Source: a virus. Taken from it: a stretch of 64,000 bases of DNA. Both the position numbers and the translations under genes were made by a program. This document shows positions 4,031 to 57,344 of this stretch, piece after piece. Below the pieces are notes generated by a model. That model saw only the letters and a program-made list of their open reading frames with translations. It did no database searches and was not told the DNA's origin. The DNA lies in the IMG/VR virus record IMGVR_UViG_3300018875_000003, positions 32,001-96,000 of that record; one strand, 5' to 3'. How positions within the stretch are numbered: position 1 is the stretch's first letter; every line of letters begins with the position of its first letter.

Positions 4031-6096
4031 TATGAGTCCACTCCTTTAAGGGTATTGACGCCAAGTACAAACTCACCGAGCGGCCATCCTTGATCAAAGT
4101 CATTGCCCAGCGCATACTGCACCTTCTCTTTGCCGCTAATCGTGAGTCGATCGGACAACTCAGGCAGGATATTCTGGGTTTTGAGGTCTCTCGGAAGGAT
4201 TTTGCTCTGATCGCTGATATTTGGCATGTATACCGGGTAAAAGCCGACTGTCGGATTCAGTGAAACCACTTCATCCATCTTGCCGTCAATATCTGCCCGG
4301 ATTTTTGTATCATCATGGATCAGGACATTGTAGTACTCCAGCAGCCTGTGCTGGTAGTTTGCAATGATCTGATGCGTGAATCCGATGCTCATGTGTGTCT
4401 GCTCACTTATTTCTGCAGAAAGTCCGGCAGACGATGCTATCGATTCTCCAAACAGGGCATCCATCGATTCTGCCACGCGATTAAACAGATTTTCAGTCAT
4501 CGCGTGCGACTCGTTCAGGCTTACACCCATTACATCCACAGCGCTCAGTAGAGGCGCCTGACGGGCTTCTACAGCGTCCGCCATGCCAACTGCCCATTCC
4601 TCTGAATAGGCGGTCTTAATCGCCGTATAGCCGCTGTGAATCCGTTCTCCCATGCCTGCAAAATAGCTGAACACATCGGTCATTTCGTAATCAACGATGA
4701 TGTGAGCTTTTTCCTGGACGCGGTAGATGAGCTTATCCAGTAGTGTGACAAAATAGTCGTCGATATGCGGCAGCAGGTCGCCACCGATCAATTCCTTAAT
4801 AATGTCTTTTACAATAATGTATTGCGTTACATTATCATCCTCGTAGAGGTCGTACTGGACGATACCCGCTGGTCTGCTCTTATTCAGGTCAGATCCATCA
4901 TGGAGGTTATGCTGGACGATGGATTGCATCTGGTCGATCGCCAGATAAGGGAAGATCGCATCCTGGACGAATAACCGCAGCAGCATCAGCAGCTCTTCGG
5001 CCGGCTCGGCAACGAGCGCTTCCAGGACTTCTGTTTTAAAGTAGCGAAGTTCGGTCTTTGTGGACTCCAGATGGACGTAATCCACCTGTTCCTGCAATGC
5101 AGGTTCTAACAATAATTGTACTGCACTGCTTGTCGCAATCACAAAGTCGTCTTGAGGCATCAGATCATAGGATGCCTTCAATATCTCACTCTTTATATCG
5201 AAATCAATGGTTCCATCTAAATAAATCGCTTGATTTTCCCCGTTTTCTACGAAGACTTCGATAGTGGACTTCTTTACGATCCGATCGAGTGAATCTTCCA
5301 GGAAAACTTCGAGGATCATCGTCATCATATCGGTTGTCCGGTTGCGATAGTTATCCGCCACCCGGTACAGCTTCATAATCTCAGAAAACTCTTTCTGGGA
5401 TGACATGAAGCTTTCTTTGAACTCATGTCCGAGTTCTTTGCCGATCATCTGGAACAATTCGGTGAGAACGGCAGTCACCTGCTCATTCACCTCGGAAGTT
5501 CCGCCCTTCCCGATTTCAATCTGCTCTTCTCCGGCCATCGTAGCCTCTTCCGCCTGATCAATCAGGTGGTCATAGCGAATACGGTCTTTTCGGAGTGTAG
5601 CCTGCAGAGCATCTTCTGTAATCAGGGAGATCAAGCTTTCGATCTCTCCTTCCCGGACCATCGTCATGATGTCCAGAAGATCATAGAGCATTTCATAGAC
5701 CAGCAATTCGTTCTGGTCGTCTTTCAGATCGGAGTAGACCCAATCGCTTCGATAGCCGACATCGGATATTCCTCTGATTCGGTACTGATTCAGCCGCCTG
5801 ATCTCGCCTGGCTGCGGCCCATTGCCGAGTGTTAACCAGTAGGATTCGGATACCTCATCCTGTGGCGTATCGAGAACAGCTTTGATTCGAAATATAGCGC
5901 CGTCTACGTTGTTTGCTGGGATACCGGTATCAACGTACTTTTGTGTCACTGCCGATTTGGTCTCACCTTCCGCAGAAATAACGCGAAGGCGATAGACACC
6001 TTCGCTTCCTGGGAATGATACCTGTTTGAAAATCCGTTCTTTCAGCGGATTCTTGGAATCAGCAGTGAAAGGCATGACACTCATTTCTTCATTCAT
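4030..6096 (-). CDS. Hypothetical virion-region protein
   Basis: 688 aa ORF translationally coupled to the next gene; acidic; C-term GWPLGEFVLGVN. Confidence 0.6.
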   Translation of the reverse strand: MNEEMSVMPFTADSKNPLKERIFKQVSFPGSEGVYRLRVISAEGETKSAVTQKYVDTGIPANNVDGAIFRIKAVLDTPQDEVSESYWLTLGNGPQPGEIRRLNQYRIRGISDVGYRSDWVYSDLKDDQNELLVYEMLYDLLDIMTMVREGEIESLISLITEDALQATLRKDRIRYDHLIDQAEEATMAGEEQIEIGKGGTSEVNEQVTAVLTELFQMIGKELGHEFKESFMSSQKEFSEIMKLYRVADNYRNRTTDMMTMILEVFLEDSLDRIVKKSTIEVFVENGENQAIYLDGTIDFDIKSEILKASYDLMPQDDFVIATSSAVQLLLEPALQEQVDYVHLESTKTELRYFKTEVLEALVAEPAEELLMLLRLFVQDAIFPYLAIDQMQSIVQHNLHDGSDLNKSRPAGIVQYDLYEDDNVTQYIIVKDIIKELIGGDLLPHIDDYFVTLLDKLIYRVQEKAHIIVDYEMTDVFSYFAGMGERIHSGYTAIKTAYSEEWAVGMADAVEARQAPLLSAVDVMGVSLNESHAMTENLFNRVAESMDALFGESIASSAGLSAEISEQTHMSIGFTHQIIANYQHRLLEYYNVLIHDDTKIRADIDGKMDEVVSLNPTVGFYPVYMPNISDQSKILPRDLKTQNILPELSDRLTISGKEKVQYALGNDFDQGWPLGEFVLGVNTLKGVDS

Positions 6097-6121
6097 GATG
6101 GTCCCTGCCTTTCACGCTATA

Positions 6122-19262: not shown

Positions 19263-20506
19263 GATGCCTCGCTTTCAAATACGTTCTTAATAAAACGATC
19301 GTAGACTGCTTCGAAGTTCAGCGAACCATCCTCCTGCGGCTTGATCTGGCTGATAGCTGCACGGATATAGAAGCCGTACACGTTTGCCATTTGCGGATCA
19401 TCGACAGCAACGAAGGCTTGCACCTTGCGGGCAACAAACTCTTCACGCAGTGCGTCCTGGAAGATGTGGGCGCCGCCACCGGTCAGCAAGATAATCTTCA
19501 CGCGGTTTGCATGCTGACCCCACGATGTGATGACCTCGTGTGCAATGACTTCGGCAATCTCTTTAGCAGCCTGCTGCACTAGCGGAGCCATGTCGTGCTG
19601 ATCGCCATTGAAGTCGATCTTTATGCCGCGTACAGCATCGTCCAGGTCTGCGTCGGTTGGCGTGTAGGCGATGCCGAAATTTTCATCAAAGTATCGCGGC
19701 ATGCTCACTCTCAGGCGCTTATACAGTTCAGATGTTGCCACAGTGGAAGCGTAAGTACCCTGCTCGTCCATAAACACGCCTTCGGAGAACAGCGCATAGT
19801 CTGTCGTCAGGTGGCCGATGTCGATAACAGCCGTCATGGATCGATACAGTTCAGTTGTCAGGAGACCTTCTCTCGTAAACGCGAATTGCGAATAGGATAC
19901 GGTGCCTTCTGGCTGTCTGACAATTTCAGAGCCAATCACGTTGATGTTCTTGGTAATCGTCTTACCGAATCCAAGGTAGAATGTCACCGTGAATGTCTGA
20001 TTAATGTATTCTTCAAGTCTCTTCTTGATTCCCAGCTCGTAGTCATCGTTTGGCAGGCCGGTTGTCACGTACACATTGTAATCCCCATCCTCGTGCGGCA
20101 GGCACATGGCTAGGTTTGTTTCAAACAGGACACGGAAACTCTGATCGCTTGCCCGGTCGTGGTTGGTGGTACGGTTTGTCACCAGAAGCGCATTGCTCTT
20201 CATTGCCTGGGTGCCAACGTGGAAGATTCCATCGCTAGTCTTCACCATCAAACGATCCTCATCGATTGTTGTGTTTCTCAAAGAGTTTGCATATTTCTCG
20301 TTTGTTGTTTGCACAGTCGATGGCATTACGCCTGCTTGACCTGTGCTGGATAGACGCTTCGCTCCGCCGAATCCGATATCGAGACCAACGATCTCATAAC
20401 CGAATGCGTCAGCGAGTACTTGCAATACTGTCTGGCGCTGGCCTGTCTCCTCTTGACCTGTTTCAATAGCTTTTGCCTTTGCTGCTGCACCTGTTTTAAC
20501 CGCCAT
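19259..20506 (-). CDS. parM: ParM/StbA-family actin-like partition ATPase
   Basis: GLDIGFG..K, TGLP, QPEG, VIDIGHLTTD, LLTGGGA, PQMANVYG. Confidence 0.9.
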   Translation of the reverse strand: MAVKTGAAAKAKAIETGQEETGQRQTVLQVLADAFGYEIVGLDIGFGGAKRLSSTGQAGVMPSTVQTTNEKYANSLRNTTIDEDRLMVKTSDGIFHVGTQAMKSNALLVTNRTTNHDRASDQSFRVLFETNLAMCLPHEDGDYNVYVTTGLPNDDYELGIKKRLEEYINQTFTVTFYLGFGKTITKNINVIGSEIVRQPEGTVSYSQFAFTREGLLTTELYRSMTAVIDIGHLTTDYALFSEGVFMDEQGTYASTVATSELYKRLRVSMPRYFDENFGIAYTPTDADLDDAVRGIKIDFNGDQHDMAPLVQQAAKEIAEVIAHEVITSWGQHANRVKIILLTGGGAHIFQDALREEFVARKVQAFVAVDDPQMANVYGFYIRAAISQIKPQEDGSLNFEAVYDRFIKNVFESEAS

Positions 20507-24504: not shown

Positions 24505-24862
24505 TAGGTCATGGACATGGCATGGCATAGGTATATAGGGAGTACACGATAACGGTGGATGATCCCCTCTATAGGCTATGCCCTCTATCTATGTCCTGCA
24601 TGGTGACATAGGTAGCAGTACTGTATCATGCTATGCCTTGTATGTGGGCATATGGGCGTGTAGGTGCGCTTACTCATATACACCCCCTGCATAGTACGTA
24701 TTGGTTAAGGGTCAGCCGCCCCCATACGTAGTGTGCAGGGGTTTTCTTTTATTTACTTATAGCTCCCTGTATAGGTGGCCTATATAGACCCCCTCTATAT
24801 GGCACCCCCTATATAGGGAGCTGTATGTAAGTACAGCAAATACACTACTGGAGGTTTTCTGT

Positions 24863-25036
24863 ATGACAAAGCAACTCTTATTAAGCAAAGGTGAACACCT
24901 GGGCTTCTGCCCAATGAAAGGCGATCTGTATTCGGTAGAATCGGGCCTTTCTATTTTCGGTAAGCCGCAATACCGCATTTATTCCCTGAAAGGAGATTCC
25001 ATCAGTGAACTCATCTCATTCCAAGTCATCCGCTAA
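24863..25036 (+). CDS. Hypothetical 57-aa protein upstream of RNAP (not in ORF track)
   Basis: GGAGG RBS; MTKQLLLSKGEHLGFCPMKGDLY... Confidence 0.6.
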   Translation: MTKQLLLSKGEHLGFCPMKGDLYSVESGLSIFGKPQYRIYSLKGDSISELISFQVIR

Positions 25037-25106
25037 TCTGTCGTCCCGTCTGTCGTCCGCCGCTCTGTCCAACCAAACTAAAACTAACCAAAAGGGGTTT
25101 TCCACA

Positions 25107-28100
25107 ATGACAACTACTAACAACAACAAACAAGCTCAAATCAACAAGCAACTGGCTCAAGTTAATCGTCTGTTCAACCAAGCTGTAAAAGGCAACAAAG
25201 TGAAAGCTGAAATGTCCGAACTCAAGTCTGCTTCTGTAATCCTCGATGCGATCGCTACATTCCCAGGACTGGGCGTGAAAACGAAGAACTATGAAGCGAT
25301 CACAGCAGCTATGGCAGAAGGACACAGCCTGCGCAGCATCATGCTTAATCCGGAGCTGACCGGCGTAGCGAAGAACCAATACCGTTACTTCCGTGCATTC
25401 ATGGATGCTAAAGGTGACGACATCCCTGAGATGGTTATGGCTCCGACTCGTAAACGTGTACGTACTGTATCGGTCGATCTGCTGAAGCACTCCCGCAACG
25501 AAGCTGGTGAAGTGGTGCTCAACGCGGAGGTTAACTTCCAATCTCAGTCTCAGCTGGCTGATGCGTTTGGCTCCCTTGCTGCCGACGACAAGAGCGATCT
25601 GTACTTGGATATGGCTCACGTTGTTTACATCGACCTCAACATCGCTGATCAAGAGAATCAGGAATTGAAAGACTTGCAGGTCGAGGTTGTACGCAACGGA
25701 TTCTACTACAGTGTGGATGGCGTTACACACAAAGCCAACTTCTTCATTCAGACAGCATCCCAGGCTCGTCAGCTGCAAGGTATCTACATTGCCGAAGACT
25801 TCATGACGATCCCGCAAGCATTCAAGAAGCTGGGTCATGACTTCCTCGCTTACTGCAAACTGAGCAAAGATGGCATCTATACACTTGACATCACGAAGTA
25901 TCTGAAACGTCCAGGTCTGTCTGGTACAAGCTCGGTATCTTCGAAAGCAATCACATTCCCGAATGCTCGTATCAGCAAGCTGGCTAATATGACTACTGGT
26001 GAATACCTGGTTGAATCCGATCGTCACACGATGGCGGTTATCGAGGATCGCTTTGCAAAGATCACCAATGGCACATTCAAAGCATTCTACAACAACCGTG
26101 TGGTAACTGTGTCTGCTGTTGATGGTGTATTCACCGCTCAATGGAAAGATGGCCGTCTGACTAAACAAGAAGTGCTGCCTATGAACTACCTGAAGCTGGG
26201 TGTAGGCGATGGCTTGGTTCTGGCATCCGAGTCGATCTACTGGGCACTCAAAGCCGAGCATGGCAATGACTCTGACGCATGGCAAGTACGTATCACCCCA
26301 TTCGTTAAAGGTCTGATGGTATTCGTCCCTGGCCTGCGCAAGTATTATGATGCAGACATCGTTGCATTCAAATCCGCTGTGAAAGGTGACTTCCGCCTGA
26401 TCGCTGACGAAGAAGGACGCTTGGACTTTAACATCGAGCTGCGTATTGCTCGCTTTGCTAAACGTCCAGGTAAGAAAGCGGAGTATGTAGAGCTGCCGTA
26501 TCAGTTCGCTCACGTATCCAGCATCACTGCAGAGCAAATGATCAATGTAGCTGCTCCACGTCTGGAGGAAGCAAGAAACGTACTGTCCAACCCTGCACTG
26601 ATCCAGAAGTATACTGGCGTGGCTCACCTCGAAGACCTGAGCAAGCTGACGACTGCGGAAGCTGAGTTTATGCGTGATCGTTCCCTTGTATCCGTATTTG
26701 CTAACTTCATGCACTATGCCCCATTCACGTATGAGGATGCTTACATGCAAACACGCGCTCTGCAACTGATGGGACAGCAAGTAGACAAATGGGTTGCTGG
26801 TACAATCCCTGTAGAAGGCGAGTATCGCTTCATGGTTCAGGATCCGTATGCTCTGCTGCAAGCTGTGGCTGACGAAGATGGTGATATGATTGTTCCCGCT
26901 TCCGTTGGTCTGCGTCCGCATCAAACATTCATGACTGCACGCGATAACAAACACTTTGTGACTGGACCGGTTGCTTCCTTCCGTAACCCAGCGATCGCTA
27001 AAGGTGAAGGCCGCGTACTGAAAGGTGCTGCTCCGGAGAACTATGTAACCGCATCTGCGAAAGGCGCATTCAACTCGGTCTGCATCATGAGCTGCCACGA
27101 TCTGGACACGTTCGCTGAAGGCGGCGCGGATAACGATGGTGACGAAACATTCGTAACGCAAGTGCCTGAGATCGTAAACAGCATCATGGGCAAAGATGGC
27201 GAATCCAAGTTCCTGGCTATGCTTGACCTGCATGTAGGCAAAGATGGTGAGTGGGCTTCCGGTTGCCCGTTCCCTATGGAATCCGATGAGAAGCTGACAT
27301 TCGGTGCAGCATGCGTGGATCACGATGGACAATTCAAAGTGAAGTTCACTGCTGATCAATACGATGATGCTTTCATCCAAGCTGTGCATGAGCTGAGTAA
27401 AGAGTATGTCATCCGCACGCTGAACCCGAACAAGATCGGACAGCAAACAAACATCGCTACACGTCTGGCGGATGCTGTGCGTAAGGTTGGCTATATGTAT
27501 GCTGAGGGTGTAGACGAGTTCGGTCAAGCTGTCGATCGTACCGAAGCAGAGAAACAAGATCTGCTGCATGAGATTGTACGCATGGAAGAAATGATCGATC
27601 TGGTTCGTCTGACACAAGGATGGGAGATTGACCGTGCGAAGCATGGCGGTGCATACGAAGAAGCACTGGCTGCCGAGCTTAACTTCATCAACAACCCACC
27701 GAAGTATGCTGGCTTCCAGGAGAATCCGAAAGCGAAACGCGTATGGATCAAGCAAGCATGGTTGTCTCACCACAAAGGCACTGAAGGTGGAATCGATACA
27801 GGTTCTGTAATGAGCCGCGTACACAACCACATGAAAGCATTCGTACAGGAGAATGTAATCGACAAGTCTGAGGAAATCAAGAACGATGTCGAGAACAACA
27901 ACATCATCCATGTACTGAGAAGCGAATATGCTATCGATGCTAACAAGTATGAGGCTTTGGCTGCTGTGATCCGCTCGATCCGTGCATCCTACACTGCCGA
28001 CCTGATGAATGCCCGCAATAAGAATGCAGAGTTCAACAAGCTGGCTGAAATCAAATACAACGGCAACGACCACGCTATTCGTATGGCGAAAGCTAAGATC

Positions 28101-28667
28101 GAACGTATCTATAGCGAAGATTGCGATGCGATCACATTCAAGCACCAGGCTGCACTCGCTGCACTGGAATTGTCTTACTCTGCTACAGATATCGGCTATG
28201 TATCCTATATGGTGACATATACGGAGCGTGGTAAAGATGGCAACCGCTCGATCAGCTTCCCTTGGGTTGTGGCTAAGAAACAATTCCTGGAGCTGTGCGC
28301 GAAGATTGCTAATCGCGAGATCGTGAAGAATCCTTATCTGGTTCCCGCTTCTGAAATCAAAGCAAACTTCCGTATTGCAGAAGATCCACGCAGCACAGAA
28401 GGCAAACACTATGATGGTATGAAGATGGCTGAGGTTATCAAGCAAGCTGGTTCAATCGAGGTTATGTATACGCTGAACGAGGTAACTGGTGTGTATGGTT
28501 ACGTGGCATTCGTGCCTGTAGGCAGCAGACTGGTATATGTCGGAGATTTCTATCAGGATCAGGTTGCATTCATGACCGGAGCTACCCACTTCGAACTGAA
28601 TGTATCCAATGCAGAAGCAAAAGGACAAGCCATGACCCTGACAGTCTCCAGCGTAGGTCGTAAATAA
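25107..28667 (+). CDS. YonO-like / eukaryotic-RdRP-like single-subunit RNA polymerase
   Basis: Catalytic GADNDGD; GDG.V.AS, WQVR..PFVKG, FRNP, IG..TN and EIDRAKHG motifs in RdRP/YonO order; ATG 25107 after AAAGGGG. Confidence 0.85.
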   Translation: MTTTNNNKQAQINKQLAQVNRLFNQAVKGNKVKAEMSELKSASVILDAIATFPGLGVKTKNYEAITAAMAEGHSLRSIMLNPELTGVAKNQYRYFRAFMDAKGDDIPEMVMAPTRKRVRTVSVDLLKHSRNEAGEVVLNAEVNFQSQSQLADAFGSLAADDKSDLYLDMAHVVYIDLNIADQENQELKDLQVEVVRNGFYYSVDGVTHKANFFIQTASQARQLQGIYIAEDFMTIPQAFKKLGHDFLAYCKLSKDGIYTLDITKYLKRPGLSGTSSVSSKAITFPNARISKLANMTTGEYLVESDRHTMAVIEDRFAKITNGTFKAFYNNRVVTVSAVDGVFTAQWKDGRLTKQEVLPMNYLKLGVGDGLVLASESIYWALKAEHGNDSDAWQVRITPFVKGLMVFVPGLRKYYDADIVAFKSAVKGDFRLIADEEGRLDFNIELRIARFAKRPGKKAEYVELPYQFAHVSSITAEQMINVAAPRLEEARNVLSNPALIQKYTGVAHLEDLSKLTTAEAEFMRDRSLVSVFANFMHYAPFTYEDAYMQTRALQLMGQQVDKWVAGTIPVEGEYRFMVQDPYALLQAVADEDGDMIVPASVGLRPHQTFMTARDNKHFVTGPVASFRNPAIAKGEGRVLKGAAPENYVTASAKGAFNSVCIMSCHDLDTFAEGGADNDGDETFVTQVPEIVNSIMGKDGESKFLAMLDLHVGKDGEWASGCPFPMESDEKLTFGAACVDHDGQFKVKFTADQYDDAFIQAVHELSKEYVIRTLNPNKIGQQTNIATRLADAVRKVGYMYAEGVDEFGQAVDRTEAEKQDLLHEIVRMEEMIDLVRLTQGWEIDRAKHGGAYEEALAAELNFINNPPKYAGFQENPKAKRVWIKQAWLSHHKGTEGGIDTGSVMSRVHNHMKAFVQENVIDKSEEIKNDVENNNIIHVLRSEYAIDANKYEALAAVIRSIRASYTADLMNARNKNAEFNKLAEIKYNGNDHAIRMAKAKIERIYSEDCDAITFKHQAALAALELSYSATDIGYVSYMVTYTERGKDGNRSISFPWVVAKKQFLELCAKIANREIVKNPYLVPASEIKANFRIAEDPRSTEGKHYDGMKMAEVIKQAGSIEVMYTLNEVTGVYGYVAFVPVGSRLVYVGDFYQDQVAFMTGATHFELNVSNAEAKGQAMTLTVSSVGRK

Positions 28668-28689
28668 CACGAAGCACTCATGAGATTTA

Positions 28690-29066
28690 CTGCAGTCGGT
28701 GTGTTCTCAGCACATCGACTGCACCCTTATTATAGCACACCCTTCGGGTAGGTGCTAATGCTATCGACAGACGCCTGCATGCTGCCCTGTGACGCCCTGC
28801 TCCTCTCGCATGACGAATCCTTCGACCGACAAGAAGGAAGCGGCAGACGAGACGACAGGCGGCTTATAGGACGCGTTCTTATGCAGCGGCTTATATATAG
28901 GCAAACTTACGGCAACTCAGCTCGACGGCTGAATCATACGATTATTGCGACCGGTGTGTGAGGGAGCTGCTTCGCACCACGATCGTTGCTGTTATTCGTA
29001 AGCTGAAATATAGCCTGTTTTCCTATATAGTCGATGGCATCATCACCTACCCGAAGGGTGTGCTAT
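28690..29066. ncRNA. Highly structured non-coding element downstream of RNAP
   Basis: Perfect 23-bp inverted repeat 28732-28754/29044-29066 enclosing nested stems. Confidence 0.5.
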
Positions 29067-29115
29067 TCCTGGGCGTATGCGTATTTTGCGTATGTTGCTA
29101 TATGTGTGTGATCGA

Positions 29116-29170
29116 TATCATATATCGTATTTCATACGTTGTATGCTCATTTCATATTTCGTATATCATA
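29116..29170. repeat. Heptad repeat array (TWTCRTA-like)
   Basis: tatcata tatcgta tttcata cgttgta tgctca tttcata tttcgta tatcata. Confidence 0.7.
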
Positions 29171-29277
29171 TGCTATCGAAAGAGGTGAACCCACATCCGA
29201 AAATTTCTTGCTACTTGAGTATGATTTCATATAGCCTATATAGGTATCTTATGATGAAATAGGATGCTGTAGACGAA

Positions 29278-29306
29278 GGTCGCTAACGCTCCTGTGGCTT
29301 TGTGAA
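29278..29306 (+). promoter_or_regulatory. Hairpin-GGCT element copy 1 (candidate phage RNAP promoter)
   Basis: ggtcgcTAACgctcc-tgt-GGCT-ttgTGAa. Confidence 0.55.
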
Positions 29307-29392
29307 TGTGTGTCTTATGAGTATGGCTATATGCTAATCGGACATACGCGAATGACGATAGATATACTATGACTATATAGGGAGATGTATAT

Positions 29393-29689
29393 ATGAGTTA
29401 TCCTGATTGGCAACCTAAGTTTGATTTCAATGACGATCTTGTTTGTATAGAGAGATACTTCGATAATGAGAATGTCGATGATCTGGCTCCATCTATAGAG
29501 ATGGTTGTTGGTAAAGGTATTACTCTAACGTTGATTCCTTCAGCTTTATTCCCTGCATATAGGGTGAACAATGCACAAGGTGAATGTATTGGTCATATTA
29601 GTCGTGAGACATCTCTTTATCTTGTTACTCTATATCCTCGTGCTATGAGTGATGGACAGATTAAGTATCTTCGTTCATTGCGTAAATAG
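29393..29689 (+). CDS. Hypothetical protein
   Basis: 98 aa; GGGAG RBS. Confidence 0.65.
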   Translation: MSYPDWQPKFDFNDDLVCIERYFDNENVDDLAPSIEMVVGKGITLTLIPSALFPAYRVNNAQGECIGHISRETSLYLVTLYPRAMSDGQIKYLRSLRK

Positions 29690-29837
29690 CATATATGATG
29701 ATGGCTATATAGGTTGTTTATGCTATATAGACTTTATATCGTTAGATATATGATTAATAGGATGGCGCTTTGCCTTTTTTTCTTTTGCCAATCCTTTGGA
29801 TCGGCGCTAAAACACTATGCAATGGGGGTTCCATCAC

Positions 29838-30065
29838 ATGGAAGCATTCATCAGGTTCTACGCTAAAGTCAATCCAGGACACTGGGCTTTGGATATTCGT
29901 CATTCGAGTATAGTCGATTGGTCTATCACCGTTGGCTATAAGGCATCGCATCCGAAGTATGGCGAAAGCATTATTCATGTACAGGGTTGGGATGTCGATC
30001 TGGCCTTTGCGAAAGCACAGGTTCAGCTGAAAGAATGGTTGACCGAACATAACGGCGGCTATTGA
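29838..30065 (+). CDS. Hypothetical protein
   Basis: GGGGG RBS before MEAFIRF. Confidence 0.6.
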   Translation: MEAFIRFYAKVNPGHWALDIRHSSIVDWSITVGYKASHPKYGESIIHVQGWDVDLAFAKAQVQLKEWLTEHNGGY

Positions 30066-30090
30066 TTAACTATATAGGAGGATTCATCAT

Positions 30091-30375
30091 ATGAAGAAAA
30101 CGATCGCCATGCGCCAGTCATCCGTATATGGTGCTATATCCAAGATGATTAATGCCATGTCTGGAGATTCTATTCAGTTTCAAACGGCAGTGAAGATGTA
30201 TAAGCGATTTGCTACAGGCTTTGTTCTAAGAGAGAACGAGGTGGCTTTCTTTCTCCGCGAGCTGGTTGATGCTGGTCACTTGCACCTGGAGGTAAACGAT
30301 CAAGGCAAAGAGATGTTGTCGCTCACTCCAGCGGGAGACGAATACCATACCATAAGCTTTGGTGATGACGAATGA
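30091..30375 (+). CDS. Hypothetical protein (possible winged helix)
   Basis: AGGAGG RBS; LVDAGHL..LSLTPAG. Confidence 0.65.
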   Translation: MKKTIAMRQSSVYGAISKMINAMSGDSIQFQTAVKMYKRFATGFVLRENEVAFFLRELVDAGHLHLEVNDQGKEMLSLTPAGDEYHTISFGDDE

Positions 30376-30620
30376 ACGTTTACGATATTGGCATGCACTA
30401 TGATGATATACTGCTGCGTATGAAGGATGTGCGCAGCTATATTCCTGTGCTTATGTCTGGATATAAGGCTCCGTATGATATCGAGGACATTATCCGGGAG
30501 TATGCTGCTAATCCGATGTATGATATGTCTTTGGATGAGTTCCGCAGCCGGTTGAATCTATTATCGTCTATAGTGCGATTAGATTACGATAAGCTTGCGG
30601 CTTCATATGGGATGTCGTAA
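30372..30620 (+). CDS. Hypothetical protein
   Basis: ATGA overlap with upstream gene. Confidence 0.6.
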   Translation: MNVYDIGMHYDDILLRMKDVRSYIPVLMSGYKAPYDIEDIIREYAANPMYDMSLDEFRSRLNLLSSIVRLDYDKLAASYGMS

Positions 30621-31100: not shown

Positions 31101-31161
31101 CCGCCTGATGAGTCCCTGGCGTGGGACGAAACCAGAATGTCGTGAGATATGCTGGTCGCGG
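31101..31161 (+). ncRNA. Hammerhead ribozyme (type I topology)
   Basis: ccgc-CUGAUGA-guccc/gggac-GAAA-ccag/cugg-UC^-gcgg; complete core; predicted cleavage after C31157. Confidence 0.9.
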
Positions 31162-31192
31162 ATTGCCGCAGCTTATACAAGGAGGAATGTTT

Positions 31193-31528
31193 ATGCCATT
31201 AAAGCTATATACAGCTCAGTATGCTTATCGTGGTCCGGATCGTGTGGATACCACAGTGAAAAGCAGTGATGGTATCTTTGCGCCGACCTGGGATATTGTC
31301 ATGGGTGTGAAGAAAGGTCGGATCACCGAGCAGCAGTATACGGATGAGTATTATCGTATGATGCGCGATTCATATACCCAGAACTATGACAAATGGATGG
31401 AGCTTCTATCCAGAGATGAGGCGACGATCGTATGCTTCTGTGCGTATGGCCAGTTCTGTCATCGTCATCTACTGAAAGACATGCTTGTTAAATGTGGCGC
31501 CACTTATATGGGCGAACGTGGAAGGTGA
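31193..31528 (+). CDS. DUF488-like protein
   Basis: FAPTWDIV..Y..M..IVCFC..FCHRHLL. Confidence 0.65.
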   Translation: MPLKLYTAQYAYRGPDRVDTTVKSSDGIFAPTWDIVMGVKKGRITEQQYTDEYYRMMRDSYTQNYDKWMELLSRDEATIVCFCAYGQFCHRHLLKDMLVKCGATYMGERGR

Positions 31529-31741: not shown

Positions 31742-32047
31742 ATGACTAAACAATCTAAAGCATTGAATGCACTCTGCGTTTTGTATCCTCATGCGCGCCC
31801 TGCTGCAGGTGAAGGATACAATATGATCCGTGCTGAGCGTTATGACAACCCTGTTGACTTTCAGAATCTTGTTACCTGTCTTCTTGCTGCGTTCCCCTCT
31901 TCCCTATTCGATCATGCAGATTATGTGGAGGTTAGATTCTCCGCCGACACGATCACAGTGTACACTGGCCACTTCCTGGTTGAGTCTGACGTATATAACG
32001 TTCGATTCCTCTATGAAGCTTCGTACCAGACAGACACTGACTCATGA
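31742..32047 (+). CDS. Hypothetical protein
   Basis: GGAGG RBS; 101 aa. Confidence 0.65.
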   Translation: MTKQSKALNALCVLYPHARPAAGEGYNMIRAERYDNPVDFQNLVTCLLAAFPSSLFDHADYVEVRFSADTITVYTGHFLVESDVYNVRFLYEASYQTDTDS

Positions 32048-32566: not shown

Positions 32567-32651
32567 ACAGGTTCTCTTTTTCTTTTGTCTACCCTTCGGG
32601 CAGACGCGATCGGCGGATGATGCTTCATGTATTCGAATGCAGCATACGAAT

Positions 32652-32680
32652 GGTCGCTAACGCTCCATCGGCTTGACGAT
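32652..32680 (+). promoter_or_regulatory. Hairpin-GGCT element copy 2
   Basis: ggtcgcTAACgctcc-atc-GGCT-tgaCGAt, about 15 nt before a GGAGG RBS. Confidence 0.55.
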
Positions 32681-36648: not shown

Positions 36649-36654
36649 GAAGTA

Positions 36655-36717
36655 TTTCATATTTCATACGTTATACGATATATTTCCTACGATGTATGAT
36701 GTATTTCGTATTTCATA
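36655..36717. repeat. Heptad repeat array, 9 in-phase units
   Basis: tttcata tttcata cgttata cgatata tttccta cgatgta tgatgta tttcgta tttcata. Confidence 0.75.
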
Positions 36718-36736
36718 GGATTGGAGGACATATCAT

Positions 36737-38576: not shown

Positions 38577-38643
38577 AGTCGGCTTGGCGACTATAAATAG
38601 GCCTTTGGCCAAGCGCGGGCTCCCGGGTCGTCGGGAGTATGGC
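38577..38643 (+). ncRNA. Pistol-like ribozyme
   Basis: P1 AGUCG/CGACU; loop GCUUGG pairs with CCAAGC (pseudoknot); AUAAAUAG linker; P2 GCC/GGC; GCG; P3 GCUCCCG/CGGGAGU. Confidence 0.78.
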
Positions 38644-38674
38644 AACACATACTATTCCAAACGAGGTGCTTACT

Positions 38675-41534: not shown

Positions 41535-41669
41535 TTCATATATCATATGAAATATTAAATACGAAATACGATCTTGGTCTATATCATACGATATAGGCCT
41601 TTTTCGTATGTAATTCTTCATATCATATGATATATGAAATATGTTATACGATATAGATCATATATCATA
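41534..41669. repeat. Heptad repeat array (two blocks)
   Basis: attcata tatcata tgaaata ttaaata cgaaata ... tatcata tgatata tgaaata tgttata cgatata gatcata tatcata. Confidence 0.75.
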
Positions 41670-41758
41670 CGATTTGTTGATAGATGTGGGTTGATCGAAC
41701 CTTCGGTCATCCACCTGTTTCAGCAAATACATTCACTTAATATAAGGAGGCATTGGCA

Positions 41759-56711: not shown

Positions 56712-57344
56712 GTGTCCGAAAATTATTTAGAAAGCCGCCTAACCAAGAATGAACTATTGGTCTACGAGTATATTAAGCAGAAATCGAGTATTACGGGTTC
56801 TGTTCATGAATCGATGGTGCAAATGGCTGAAAACATTAGTGCAATGTTTAAAGACCGCATCGCCGTTCGTAATGTGCGCTCAGTAGGCGGAGGTAAGGGA
56901 AAATCGGATCCCGCCATCAGTACAGCAACCGTTTCACGCGCAGTGAATCGTTTGAAGTCTGAAGGCATAATCGATATCAAACAATCACCAGATAGCTCAC
57001 AGCCAAACGAGTATGTCTTCCTGGGACTTCCCGATGAAGAGAAGCAAGTGTCTGACATCATGGACTTGGCCGACAAATTGAACAGCCACCTGCGCAGATT
57101 CGAAACCATGCTGAAGAATCGTGACAAAGAGATTCATCAGCTGAAAACAGAGAAAAAGCAGTTGTACTTTCAACTTGACGGCAAGAATGAAGAGATTCGA
57201 AGATTGAATCAGACACTGGAATCACTGCAGAATGATCTTAAACAGATCAACACGGGTGATTTCAATCCATTCACCGAGGGACAATTCCTTGGAATTACCG
57301 AAGTTGGCGAAGGAGTTCGAGCTTATCTTGTGAAAACTCATTAA
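56712..57344 (+). CDS. Winged-HTH regulator with coiled coil (candidate operator-binding repressor)
   Basis: ISTATVSRAVNRLKSEGII; operator-like TGTAACGTGTTATA over its -10 (56621-56634). Confidence 0.65.
   Translation: MSENYLESRLTKNELLVYEYIKQKSSITGSVHESMVQMAENISAMFKDRIAVRNVRSVGGGKGKSDPAISTATVSRAVNRLKSEGIIDIKQSPDSSQPNEYVFLGLPDEEKQVSDIMDLADKLNSHLRRFETMLKNRDKEIHQLKTEKKQLYFQLDGKNEEIRRLNQTLESLQNDLKQINTGDFNPFTEGQFLGITEVGEGVRAYLVKTH

Follow-up and report, generated by a model that had tools for sequence, protein, structure and literature searches.

A large structured non-coding element behind a predicted YonO-like polymerase gene

The single-chain polymerases of the YonO type are distant cousins of the cellular RNA polymerases and of the eukaryotic polymerases of RNA interference (RNAi). 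According to the 2017 paper on YonO, there is a single YonO promoter in SPbeta, the sequence determinants of which were left undetermined, and a YonO-dependent start site is located upstream of yonK and of an unannotated non-coding RNA (PMC5467207). Beyond this remark, literature searches turned up no signals or RNAs beside YonO-like polymerases. Here we describe a 335-base element at positions 28732-29066 of a 64,000-nucleotide stretch of viral DNA (positions 32,001 to 96,000 of the IMG/VR record IMGVR_UViG_3300018875_000003, which comprises 116,980 base pairs (bp); hereafter, the window), downstream of a gene for a predicted YonO-like polymerase. This element is a non-coding structure tied to the polymerase gene; its kind, namely, a structured intergenic RNA or a processing stem beside a phage polymerase gene, is familiar, and this particular one is apparently undescribed. 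Altogether, the locus offers three testable signals, that is, a sense-strand hairpin that occurs once per genome of about 200 kilobases (kb), a large duplex-closed RNA candidate, and a multi-copy promoter-like motif rich in guanine and cytosine (GC); of these, the hairpin, which is found family-wide, and the GC-rich motif have the wider bearing.

The SPbeta locus resembles the present one in that a homologous polymerase gene is followed by a stem-loop and then by a long structured non-coding region, on the same strand, ahead of a long co-directional operon. Specifically, the layout in SPbeta consists of yonO, the stem-loop, an additional gene, yonN, that is absent from the present locus, and a gene-free, hairpin-rich gap of 1.68 kb which holds an inverted pair, CTCCTTCGG / CCGAAGGAG, 87 nucleotides (nt) apart. 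However, the non-coding regions of the two loci show no sequence similarity, and the operon downstream in SPbeta is a late structural one, whereas the block downstream of the present element consists of replication-type genes. A separate observation on the SPbeta yonN-yonK gap is a match to the Rfam family DUF3800-VIII RNA (L101, positions 19409-19474, minus strand; 47.5 bits against a cut-off of 40.2).

Several other systems invite comparison. The sib site of phage lambda retroregulates int, and RNase III sites of phage T7 (R1.1) adjoin gene 1; in these cases, a duplex located beyond the end of a gene or a terminator is formed in full only in read-through transcripts, is cut by RNase III, and sets the stability of the upstream message. 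In the present locus, too, a predicted duplex is located beyond a likely terminator, and the T7 site likewise stands beside a phage polymerase gene. However, sib and the T7 sites are single hairpins of about 40-60 nt, whereas here a 37-bp duplex closes a branched core of 261 nt, its cleavage is a prediction, and the polymerase belongs to a superfamily other than that of the T7 RNA polymerase. The virion RNA polymerase of phage N4 is a T7-like single-subunit enzyme that recognizes hairpin promoters; the small hairpin described below shares with these promoters the short stem, the 3-nt loop, the flanking conserved bases, and the occurrence in very few copies at one place of the genome, but the present enzyme is of the two-barrel type and the candidate stem measures only 3-4 bp. 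Finally, 6S RNA, which is likewise stable and paired over most of its length, binds RNA polymerase and can be used by it as a template; unlike 6S RNA, the element is multi-branched rather than a rod with a central bubble, and it has no match in Rfam.

The element, its fold and its conservation

The element lies within a non-coding region of 725 nt between the polymerase gene and an open reading frame (ORF) that starts at 29393. It is delimited by two inverted-repeat arms of 37 nt (28732-28768 and 29030-29066) that are complementary at 34 positions (92%, three mismatches) and are separated by 261 nt, the outer 23 nt (ATAGCAC...GGTG) being perfectly complementary. An earlier reading of the window, made from the letters alone (hereafter, the sequence-only reading), had reported a perfect inverted repeat of 23 bp that extends to 37 bp with three mismatches, and this description holds. 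A 19-mer of the arm occurs exactly twice in the window, once per strand, where 0 occurrences are expected (100 shuffles). The parts of the element and its immediate upstream neighbors are as follows.

25005-28667, plus strand: polymerase gene, 1220 amino acids, predicted two-barrel single-subunit enzyme resembling YonO and RNA-dependent RNA polymerases (RdRPs); first large gene of the plus-strand block
28691-28723, plus strand: hairpin 1, a stem of 15 pairs with CCCTTATTAT behind it; picked by the terminator scan and likely to serve the polymerase gene as intrinsic terminator
28732-28768, plus strand: left arm of the long inverted repeat, part of a block of some 40 nt in which two lineages hardly differ
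28739-28754, plus strand: family-wide signal, triloop hairpin ACCC-TTC-GGGT followed by AGGTG (motif counts, stem covariation)
28769-28893, plus strand: inner domain 1, a long irregular stem-loop in which gcctgcat/atgcagcggc closes tccttc/gaagga (fold)
28894-29029, plus strand: inner domain 2, closed by 28894-28906 / 29017-29029, the TATATAGG stem (repeat search, fold)
29030-29066, plus strand: right arm, an inverted copy of the hairpin signal, which here is on the minus strand (repeat search)

When folded as RNA, the plus strand of 28680-29080 reaches -182.8 kcal/mol, as compared to -125.2 +/- 5.5 kcal/mol for shuffled sequences (z = -10.5), and none of the 100 shuffles is as good. The minus strand of the element gives -170.1 kcal/mol (z = -8.5) and the element folded as single-stranded DNA gives z = -8.0, whereas the flanking 400-nt windows yield z-scores of +0.3 and -0.7; sliding z-scores, which were based on 15 shuffles only, are mixed. 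The minimum-free-energy fold contains all the inner helices that the sequence-only reading had picked out (gcctgcat/atgcagcggc, tccttc/gaagga, tatatagg/cctatata, cttacg/cgtaag and gcaac/gttgc), and the separate hairpin that had been noticed at 28690-28723 is found as a 15-pair stem at 28691-28723. Each arm had also been described as a hairpin in its own right: the left arm alone indeed forms a 10-bp ACCC-TTC-GGGT hairpin of -11.5 kcal/mol, and the right arm folds locally as well (-11.2 kcal/mol), although the program chose another pairing for it. In every comparison made, namely, for the window, for the related viral contig L001, for the inner domain and for hairpin 1, the plus strand folds better than the minus strand. 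In particular, the energies of the whole element in L001 are -140.3 vs -128.1 kcal/mol (fold z = -6.3), and those of the inner domain are -90.5 vs -84.7, -73.1 vs -66.4 and -73.8 vs -66.7 kcal/mol.

The element does not appear to encode a protein. No ORF of the 725-nt intergenic region keeps its frame or its length among the three sequences available for comparison, and, on these grounds, the ORFs 28752-28961 and 28958-29188 as well as a coding sequence of 67 amino acids annotated within the element of the Paenibacillus urinalis plasmid L102 were rejected as coding; a leader peptide behind AGGTG was rejected too, given that neither start codons nor lengths are conserved. Comparison of the element to Rfam 15, including 6S, ROOL, GOLLD, OLE, riboswitches and ribozymes, yielded no family match: the sole match at E <= 1 within 27500-30500 was BTH_s1, with 18.6 bits against a cut-off of 74, and it falls on hairpin 1. 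For 12 related loci, the Rfam search returned only a transfer RNA. The element is present in a single copy both in its own 117-kb record and in a complete 215-kb relative.

The element is found at the same position after the polymerase gene in L001 and in L102, at 80% polymerase identity. Since L001 and L102 represent one lineage, the comparison involves three sequences and, effectively, two lineages; contigs from three further runs (X2, X4 and X6) are of the L001 type. Thus, conservation beside an orthologous polymerase, which the sequence-only reading had named as a check on its proposal, is observed in the one close lineage found. Averaged over its columns, the alignment of the complete intergenic region shows about 80% identity, and the structure derived from the window is paired in 84% of the cells across the three sequences. 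Changes on both sides of a pair (compensatory changes) are seen in 8 pairs, as compared to 1-4 in slid controls, and none of 500 shuffles reaches 8. Some compensatory change is seen, but with three sequences from two lineages it is no more than suggestive of a conserved structure.

The constraint seems to be unevenly distributed over the element. The left arm has only two changes in 37 nt relative to L001 and L102, both compatible with pairing (columns 75/357 and 78/353). In inner domain 1, three pairs of helices 5 and 6 have changed on both sides, with only 73-80% of the cells paired among the three sequences. Inner domain 2 holds the best conserved inner blocks (28904-28975), and the two halves of its TATATAGG stem (helix 7) are missing together in L001 and L102, where the long duplex also has an internal 2-nt loop. 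Taken together, these data sustain one part of the initial proposal of an undescribed non-coding RNA or single-stranded DNA structure linked to the polymerase, in that the structure is real, non-coding, without a match in Rfam, and kept beside the gene; the accompanying ideas of an invertible segment and of an origin find no support, as discussed below.

A cis-acting RNA as the favored reading

The left arm of the element starts 9 nt after hairpin 1, which is itself strongly folded (-23.4 kcal/mol, z = -6.2). Hairpin 1 combines a GC-rich stem-loop and a U-rich tract after the stop codon, the two marks of an intrinsic terminator, although the tract is interrupted and the strength uncertain. The plus strand of this hairpin is favored over the minus strand both in the window (-22.7 vs -16.5 kcal/mol) and in L001 and L102 (-20.1 vs -8.1 kcal/mol); between these sequences, three of its pairs show compensatory changes, with G-U pairs on the plus strand only, and a variant of a relative at 28722 converts a G-C pair into G-U. 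Hairpin 1, then, probably terminates the transcription of the polymerase gene as an intrinsic terminator. At this place in the Bacillus relatives L007, L120, L121 and L122, inspection of the sequences by eye suggests classical terminators (a GC-rich stem and a run of T). One of these relatives is the Bacillus thuringiensis plasmid L120, where the terminator behind the polymerase gene is immediately followed by an inserted nucleotidyltransferase/HEPN gene pair (5244-6003).

On the other side of the element, a GC-rich motif that we consider as a candidate promoter (see below) has its first copy at 29278; if it is a promoter, the element is located between the terminator and the first promoter of this type. 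Our favored, if tentative, reading, which we hold to be somewhat short of probable, is that the element is a cis-acting structured RNA of the sense strand, flanked by the terminator of the polymerase gene on one side and by the promoter region of the following block on the other. Under this scenario, the host polymerase would transcribe the early polymerase gene and would mostly stop at hairpin 1 (28691-28723). The transcripts that read through would first form the small hairpin ACCC-UUC-GGGU-AGGUG; once made, the inverted second copy 300 nt further on would zip the transcript into a duplex of 37 bp (23 bp perfect) closing the two branched domains. Such a duplex would be a substrate for an enzyme of the RNase III type, and the read-through polymerase message would be processed or destabilized, that is, retroregulated; the element might also insulate the polymerase gene from the downstream block. 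A near-perfect duplex of at least about 20 bp beyond a terminator, as is typical of a sib-type RNase III site, is indeed encoded here (23 perfect pairs, 34 of 37 positions paired). That the element is transcribed, that the duplex forms in vivo and is cut by RNase III, and that polymerase expression responds to this, are all parts of the model that we infer. If the duplex does control the polymerase message, the locus would show how a phage-plasmid restrains its master lytic enzyme.

The RNA reading is favored because the structure is far beyond chance whereas the flanks are not, and because the plus strand folds better. The compensatory changes, the joint gain or loss of the two halves of helix 7, the lack of a conserved ORF and the layout that recurs in the family (see below) speak for it as well. 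Several observations weigh against it. The strand asymmetry of the inner domain is just 6-7 kcal/mol and is possibly compositional. The covariation comes from three sequences of two lineages, with the structure derived from one of them. The right arm of L001 and L102 carries about 8 changes, 3 of them neutral for the pairing and 4-5 disruptive, and no longer forms a hairpin of its own; with the right arm thus decayed and the left arm almost invariant, the long duplex is less constrained than the signal in the left arm. More distant relatives keep the small hairpin without the large closed architecture. Furthermore, the arms and the halves of helix 7 coincide with motifs that could be DNA sites, and no RNA run was found to contain the sequence of the element; the one run labelled RNA-Seq is marked as probably DNA, and the only contig that it contributes, of 256 nt (28515-28769), is no proof of a transcript. 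Finally, since the element follows the terminator-like hairpin and precedes the first candidate promoter (29278), it is perhaps made only by read-through.

The small hairpin and the alternative readings

Element-like sequences are confined to a narrow group of relatives. An nhmmer search over all 102 loci detected them in the window, L001 and L102 only; blastn of the element found one record among plasmids and none among phages; and a scan of viral contigs for exact 17-mers returned six stretches, one in the contig of L001 and five without a polymerase homologue nearby. What recurs, down to 29% polymerase identity, is the layout, namely, the gene, a terminator-like hairpin, a non-coding region of 0.4-0.8 kb with CC-UYC-GG hairpins on the sense strand, and genes on the same strand. 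The downstream regions of L028, L030 and L024 are structured (z -3.2 to -3.8) but unlike one another, and the non-coding region of one Bacillus plasmid is structured as well (z = -4.9). As an aside, L024 (49% identity) carries, after the polymerase gene, a 34-nt tandem repeat of 2.9 copies (6019-6116) that looks iteron-like.

The small hairpin itself is strikingly concentrated. Downstream of the gene, the 8,082 nt of sense strand from 13 loci contain 10 instances of the motif CCTTCGGRTA, as compared to one in 257,637 nt elsewhere, an approximately 200-fold enrichment, and 11 of these 13 loci have the shorter CCTTCGG in the downstream region. Each of the five genomes or records searched, three of which are at least 99% complete, has a single copy of the extended version CCTTCGGRTAG, and in four of the five this copy adjoins the polymerase gene; a still longer form is limited to the two arms in the record under study. 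The third pair of the stem is kept in 23 of 27 sense-strand instances of CC-TYC-GG from 15 loci, through four types of pairs, versus 10 of 21 in controls. In L028, L005 and L008, the signal is present in 2-4 copies arranged as direct repeats. Judging from these counts, the small hairpin appears to be an ancestral, family-wide signal, a second, inverted copy of which would have created the long duplex in the present lineage. Elsewhere in the window, a stretch at 32591-32666 (plus strand) holds a second small hairpin, ACCC-TTC-GGGC, with a copy of the GC-rich motif 61 nt later, before an ORF at 32673.

The distribution of this signal bears on the most serious alternative, which we consider possible though on the unlikely side, namely, that the relevant entity is DNA: the arms would be inverted recognition sites for the phage polymerase or a regulator, the TATATAGG stem would consist of two operator palindromes, and the fold would be a by-product. 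The same judgment covers the particular forms this reading could take, with the sites acting as a promoter, as a pause or terminator signal, or as an N4-like hairpin promoter extruded from supercoiled DNA. Indeed, the hairpin with its AGGTG is sequence-specific, strand-specific, and essentially single-copy per genome of about 200 kb, beside the polymerase gene, which matches the single YonO promoter reported for SPbeta (PMC5467207). The copies in L028, L005 and L008 are direct, not inverted, repeats, and the minus-strand copy of L001 and L102 keeps TTCGGATAGGTG, a variant found in other relatives, while the pairing and the local hairpin decay. Furthermore, all eight copies of the palindrome CTATATAG in the 117-kb record fall within 24,780-30,077, on both sides of the polymerase gene, where 0.66 are expected per window; two palindromes of this type make up helix 7, one per half, and W01, the complete relative (a P. 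urinalis plasmid), retains the two sites that lie upstream of the gene. From this clustering, the CTATATAG palindromes are likely, as putative operators, to be sites for a regulator of the early region. However, the covariation of the small-hairpin stem points to recognition of a folded strand rather than of a duplex, although a hairpin promoter would explain it too; the near-confinement of the signal to the sense strand fits RNA equally well; and the inner domains are conserved with some compensatory change, which two isolated sites would not need. In addition, a different, multi-copy motif, the GC-rich one, is a better candidate for the promoter of the downstream block.

A related, more specific proposal is that the small hairpin with its AGGTG tail is the recognition element of the YonO-like polymerases, either as a promoter read on a folded strand or as an RNA handle bound by the enzyme, in which case the inverted pair would be a polymerase-specific control module through which the enzyme senses, or acts on, the RNA or DNA structure beside its own gene, serving autoregulation or templated synthesis by an RdRP-like enzyme. 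The geometry of the hairpin (a stem of 3-4 bp, a 3-nt loop and a conserved 3' flank) is compatible with a hairpin promoter of the N4 type. We regard this proposal as speculative and rather unlikely; if true, it would open the polymerase family to mechanistic study and to use in orthogonal transcription.

It is also conceivable, albeit fairly unlikely in our estimate, that the element gives rise to a free-standing non-coding RNA, about 300 nt long and with its two ends paired, the target of which would be the polymerase, either as a 6S-like decoy or regulator, or as an RNA template or primer. The fold is closed, multi-branched and stable, the element always adjoins the polymerase gene in the lineage that has it, and the polymerase family matches the Pfam model of the eukaryotic RdRP. 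In SPbeta, moreover, a YonO-dependent transcript starts upstream of an unannotated non-coding RNA, whereas, on the opposite side, YonO is reported to be strictly DNA-dependent, both as stated in the 2017 paper (PMC5467207). Within the locus, neither a promoter nor a terminator marks the ends of such an RNA, and the one good sigma-A-like match points the opposite way; there is no match to 6S RNA or any other family in Rfam; and most relatives with the same polymerase lack the architecture.

An origin had been among the suggestions of the sequence-only reading, and a replication structure, that is, a signal for single-strand initiation or, jointly with the AT-rich repeats next to it, a component of an origin, now appears improbable. 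The single-stranded DNA fold is far beyond chance, a repeat-bearing AT-rich stretch (GC content 0.39) follows directly, and the minimum of the cumulative GC skew is found within about 4 kb, both in the window and in the complete relative; the location would presumably be comparable to that of the T7 primary origin just after gene 1. However, the turning point of the skew coincides with the switch of the gene strand 4 kb upstream, which explains the skew, and a gene resembling replication initiators is 28 kb away (56712-57344). The AT-rich words recur in other intergenic regions and, therefore, look like promoter or operator elements, and the excess of G-U pairs on one strand favors RNA. The signs of an origin are limited to the nearby AT-rich stretch and a skew turn that equally marks the strand switch, and what speaks against an origin is itself weak and indirect.

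Two further readings are very improbable. An invertible segment, also among the ideas of the initial proposal, would have a recombinase flip the 261 bp between the 37-bp repeats as a promoter switch, and the geometry does fit, with inverted repeats in the range of 20-40 bp flanking a few hundred bp upstream of an operon. The orientation, however, is the same in three genomes and in the contigs of the runs X2, X4 and X6, without an inversion joint, although contigs can hide minor forms; the arms are decayed in L001 and L102; and a PHROG scan of the window, which covered 42 larger ORFs but only a part of the small ones, revealed no recombinase. Similarly, 37-bp terminal inverted repeats around a short non-coding core could suggest a decayed miniature transposable element, but, given the single copies in the 117-kb record and in the 215-kb relative, the lack of other true copies in the viral contig scan, the flanks TTATT and TCCTG that form no target-site duplication, and the same position in both lineages, this seems very hard to uphold. 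A retron-type non-coding RNA (msr-msd) was rejected: the element does have inverted repeats, but its neighbor encodes a two-barrel polymerase, and a reverse transcriptase was not detected in the locus.

The polymerase gene, its carrier and other signals

The initial label of the upstream gene as one for an RNA polymerase is supported through its relatives only. The 1220-amino-acid protein alone has no match in Pfam (E <= 0.01), PHROG or PDB, and no relative of it was found in the phage collection. A protein search assembled 26 proteins, that is, the product of the window and 25 relatives of 879-1310 amino acids, many of them encoded on contigs of 190-230 kb and many with the Pfam RdRP domain PF05183, which is matched by 13 of the 22 aligned family members (best E = 2.1e-17). 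All 22 aligned sequences share an invariant GGADxDGD motif (G706, G707, A708, D709, D711, G712 and D713). The family profile aligns with SPbeta YonO in hhalign with a probability of 87% (E = 3.6e-6, 396 columns), such that the GGADxDGD motif is placed on the DNDGD of YonO. PDB sequence searches with the polymerase gave nothing significant, and the family profile reached only E = 0.19-0.54 with RDR2 and QDE-1. By virtue of these family-level similarities, the gene upstream of the element is tentatively assigned to the YonO-like two-barrel polymerases, with DNA-dependent RNA synthesis as the predicted activity.

A frame of 1139 amino acids is open antisense to this gene (25026-28445, minus strand), in the codon-aligned frame. 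The codons TTA, CTA and TCA are nearly absent from the polymerase gene (3 of 1221 codons) and are rare in other phage genes (0.3-1.9%), and it is this near-absence that keeps the antisense frame open; in L001 and L102, the frame is not kept, the longest open run being 220 codons. Thus, we read the antisense frame as a probable artefact of codon usage.

Eight circular plasmids of Paenibacillus and Bacillus, 200-260 kb in size, encode relatives of the polymerase. The closest of these plasmids, with 80% polymerase identity, belongs to Paenibacillus urinalis and has a ParM gene annotated nearby. Given these large circular plasmids, the carrier of the element appears to be a jumbo phage-plasmid of Paenibacillus of roughly 200 kb. 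In the window, head, portal and terminase genes occupy the minus strand up to about 24.7 kb, and, beginning at 25 kb, the plus strand carries genes for a helicase, a recombinase and nucleotide metabolism. In the complete 215-kb relative, too, the polymerase gene heads a plus-strand block, of 72 kb, beside a switch of gene strand and GC skew.

The remaining features of the region are the following.

28729-28758, minus strand: sigma-A-like promoter match directed towards the polymerase gene (TTAGCA, 18 nt, TGcTATAAT; 10 of 12 positions, with a TG extension)
29067-29205, no strand assigned: AT-rich stretch (GC content 0.39) that contains short repeats (CGTATTTCATA, ATATCATATG) as well as a conserved block (TTTCGTATATCATATGC ... 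GGTGAACCCnCATCCGAAAATTT)
29278-29300, plus strand: GC-rich motif GGTCGCTAACGCTCC-N3-GGCTT, candidate phage-specific promoter for the downstream block
29393-29689, plus strand: first gene after the non-coding region, 98 amino acids, no assigned function

The sigma-A-like match falls inside the invariant block of the left arm, and promoter-like matches in the region are not above chance (12 vs 10.5 +/- 3.5). The AT-rich words (CGTATTTCATA, ATATCATATG and TATACGATAT) recur between genes of the plus-strand block, at 29070-29180, 36650-36735 and 41535-41670. The GC-rich motif (GGTCGCTRACGCTCC-N3-GGCTT) has plus-strand copies in the window at 29278, 32652, 43204 and 52585; in all, there are four copies in the record under study, three in W01 and three in G001, all on the sense strand, as compared to 0-1 for reversed-pattern controls, and every copy is located 40-115 nt before a start codon. 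The exact 14-mer core of the motif recurs in L027 (43% identity), where it lies behind the polymerase gene. This placement makes the GC-rich motif the better promoter candidate for the downstream block and a candidate promoter of the phage polymerase.

Two observations concern the plus-strand block further downstream. An ORF at 31121-31528 (plus strand) encodes a DUF488-N3a domain (E = 8.6e-10), and an intergenic sequence at 38577-38644 (plus strand) matches the full model of the self-cleaving Pistol ribozyme, with 49.1 bits against a gathering score of 34.5.

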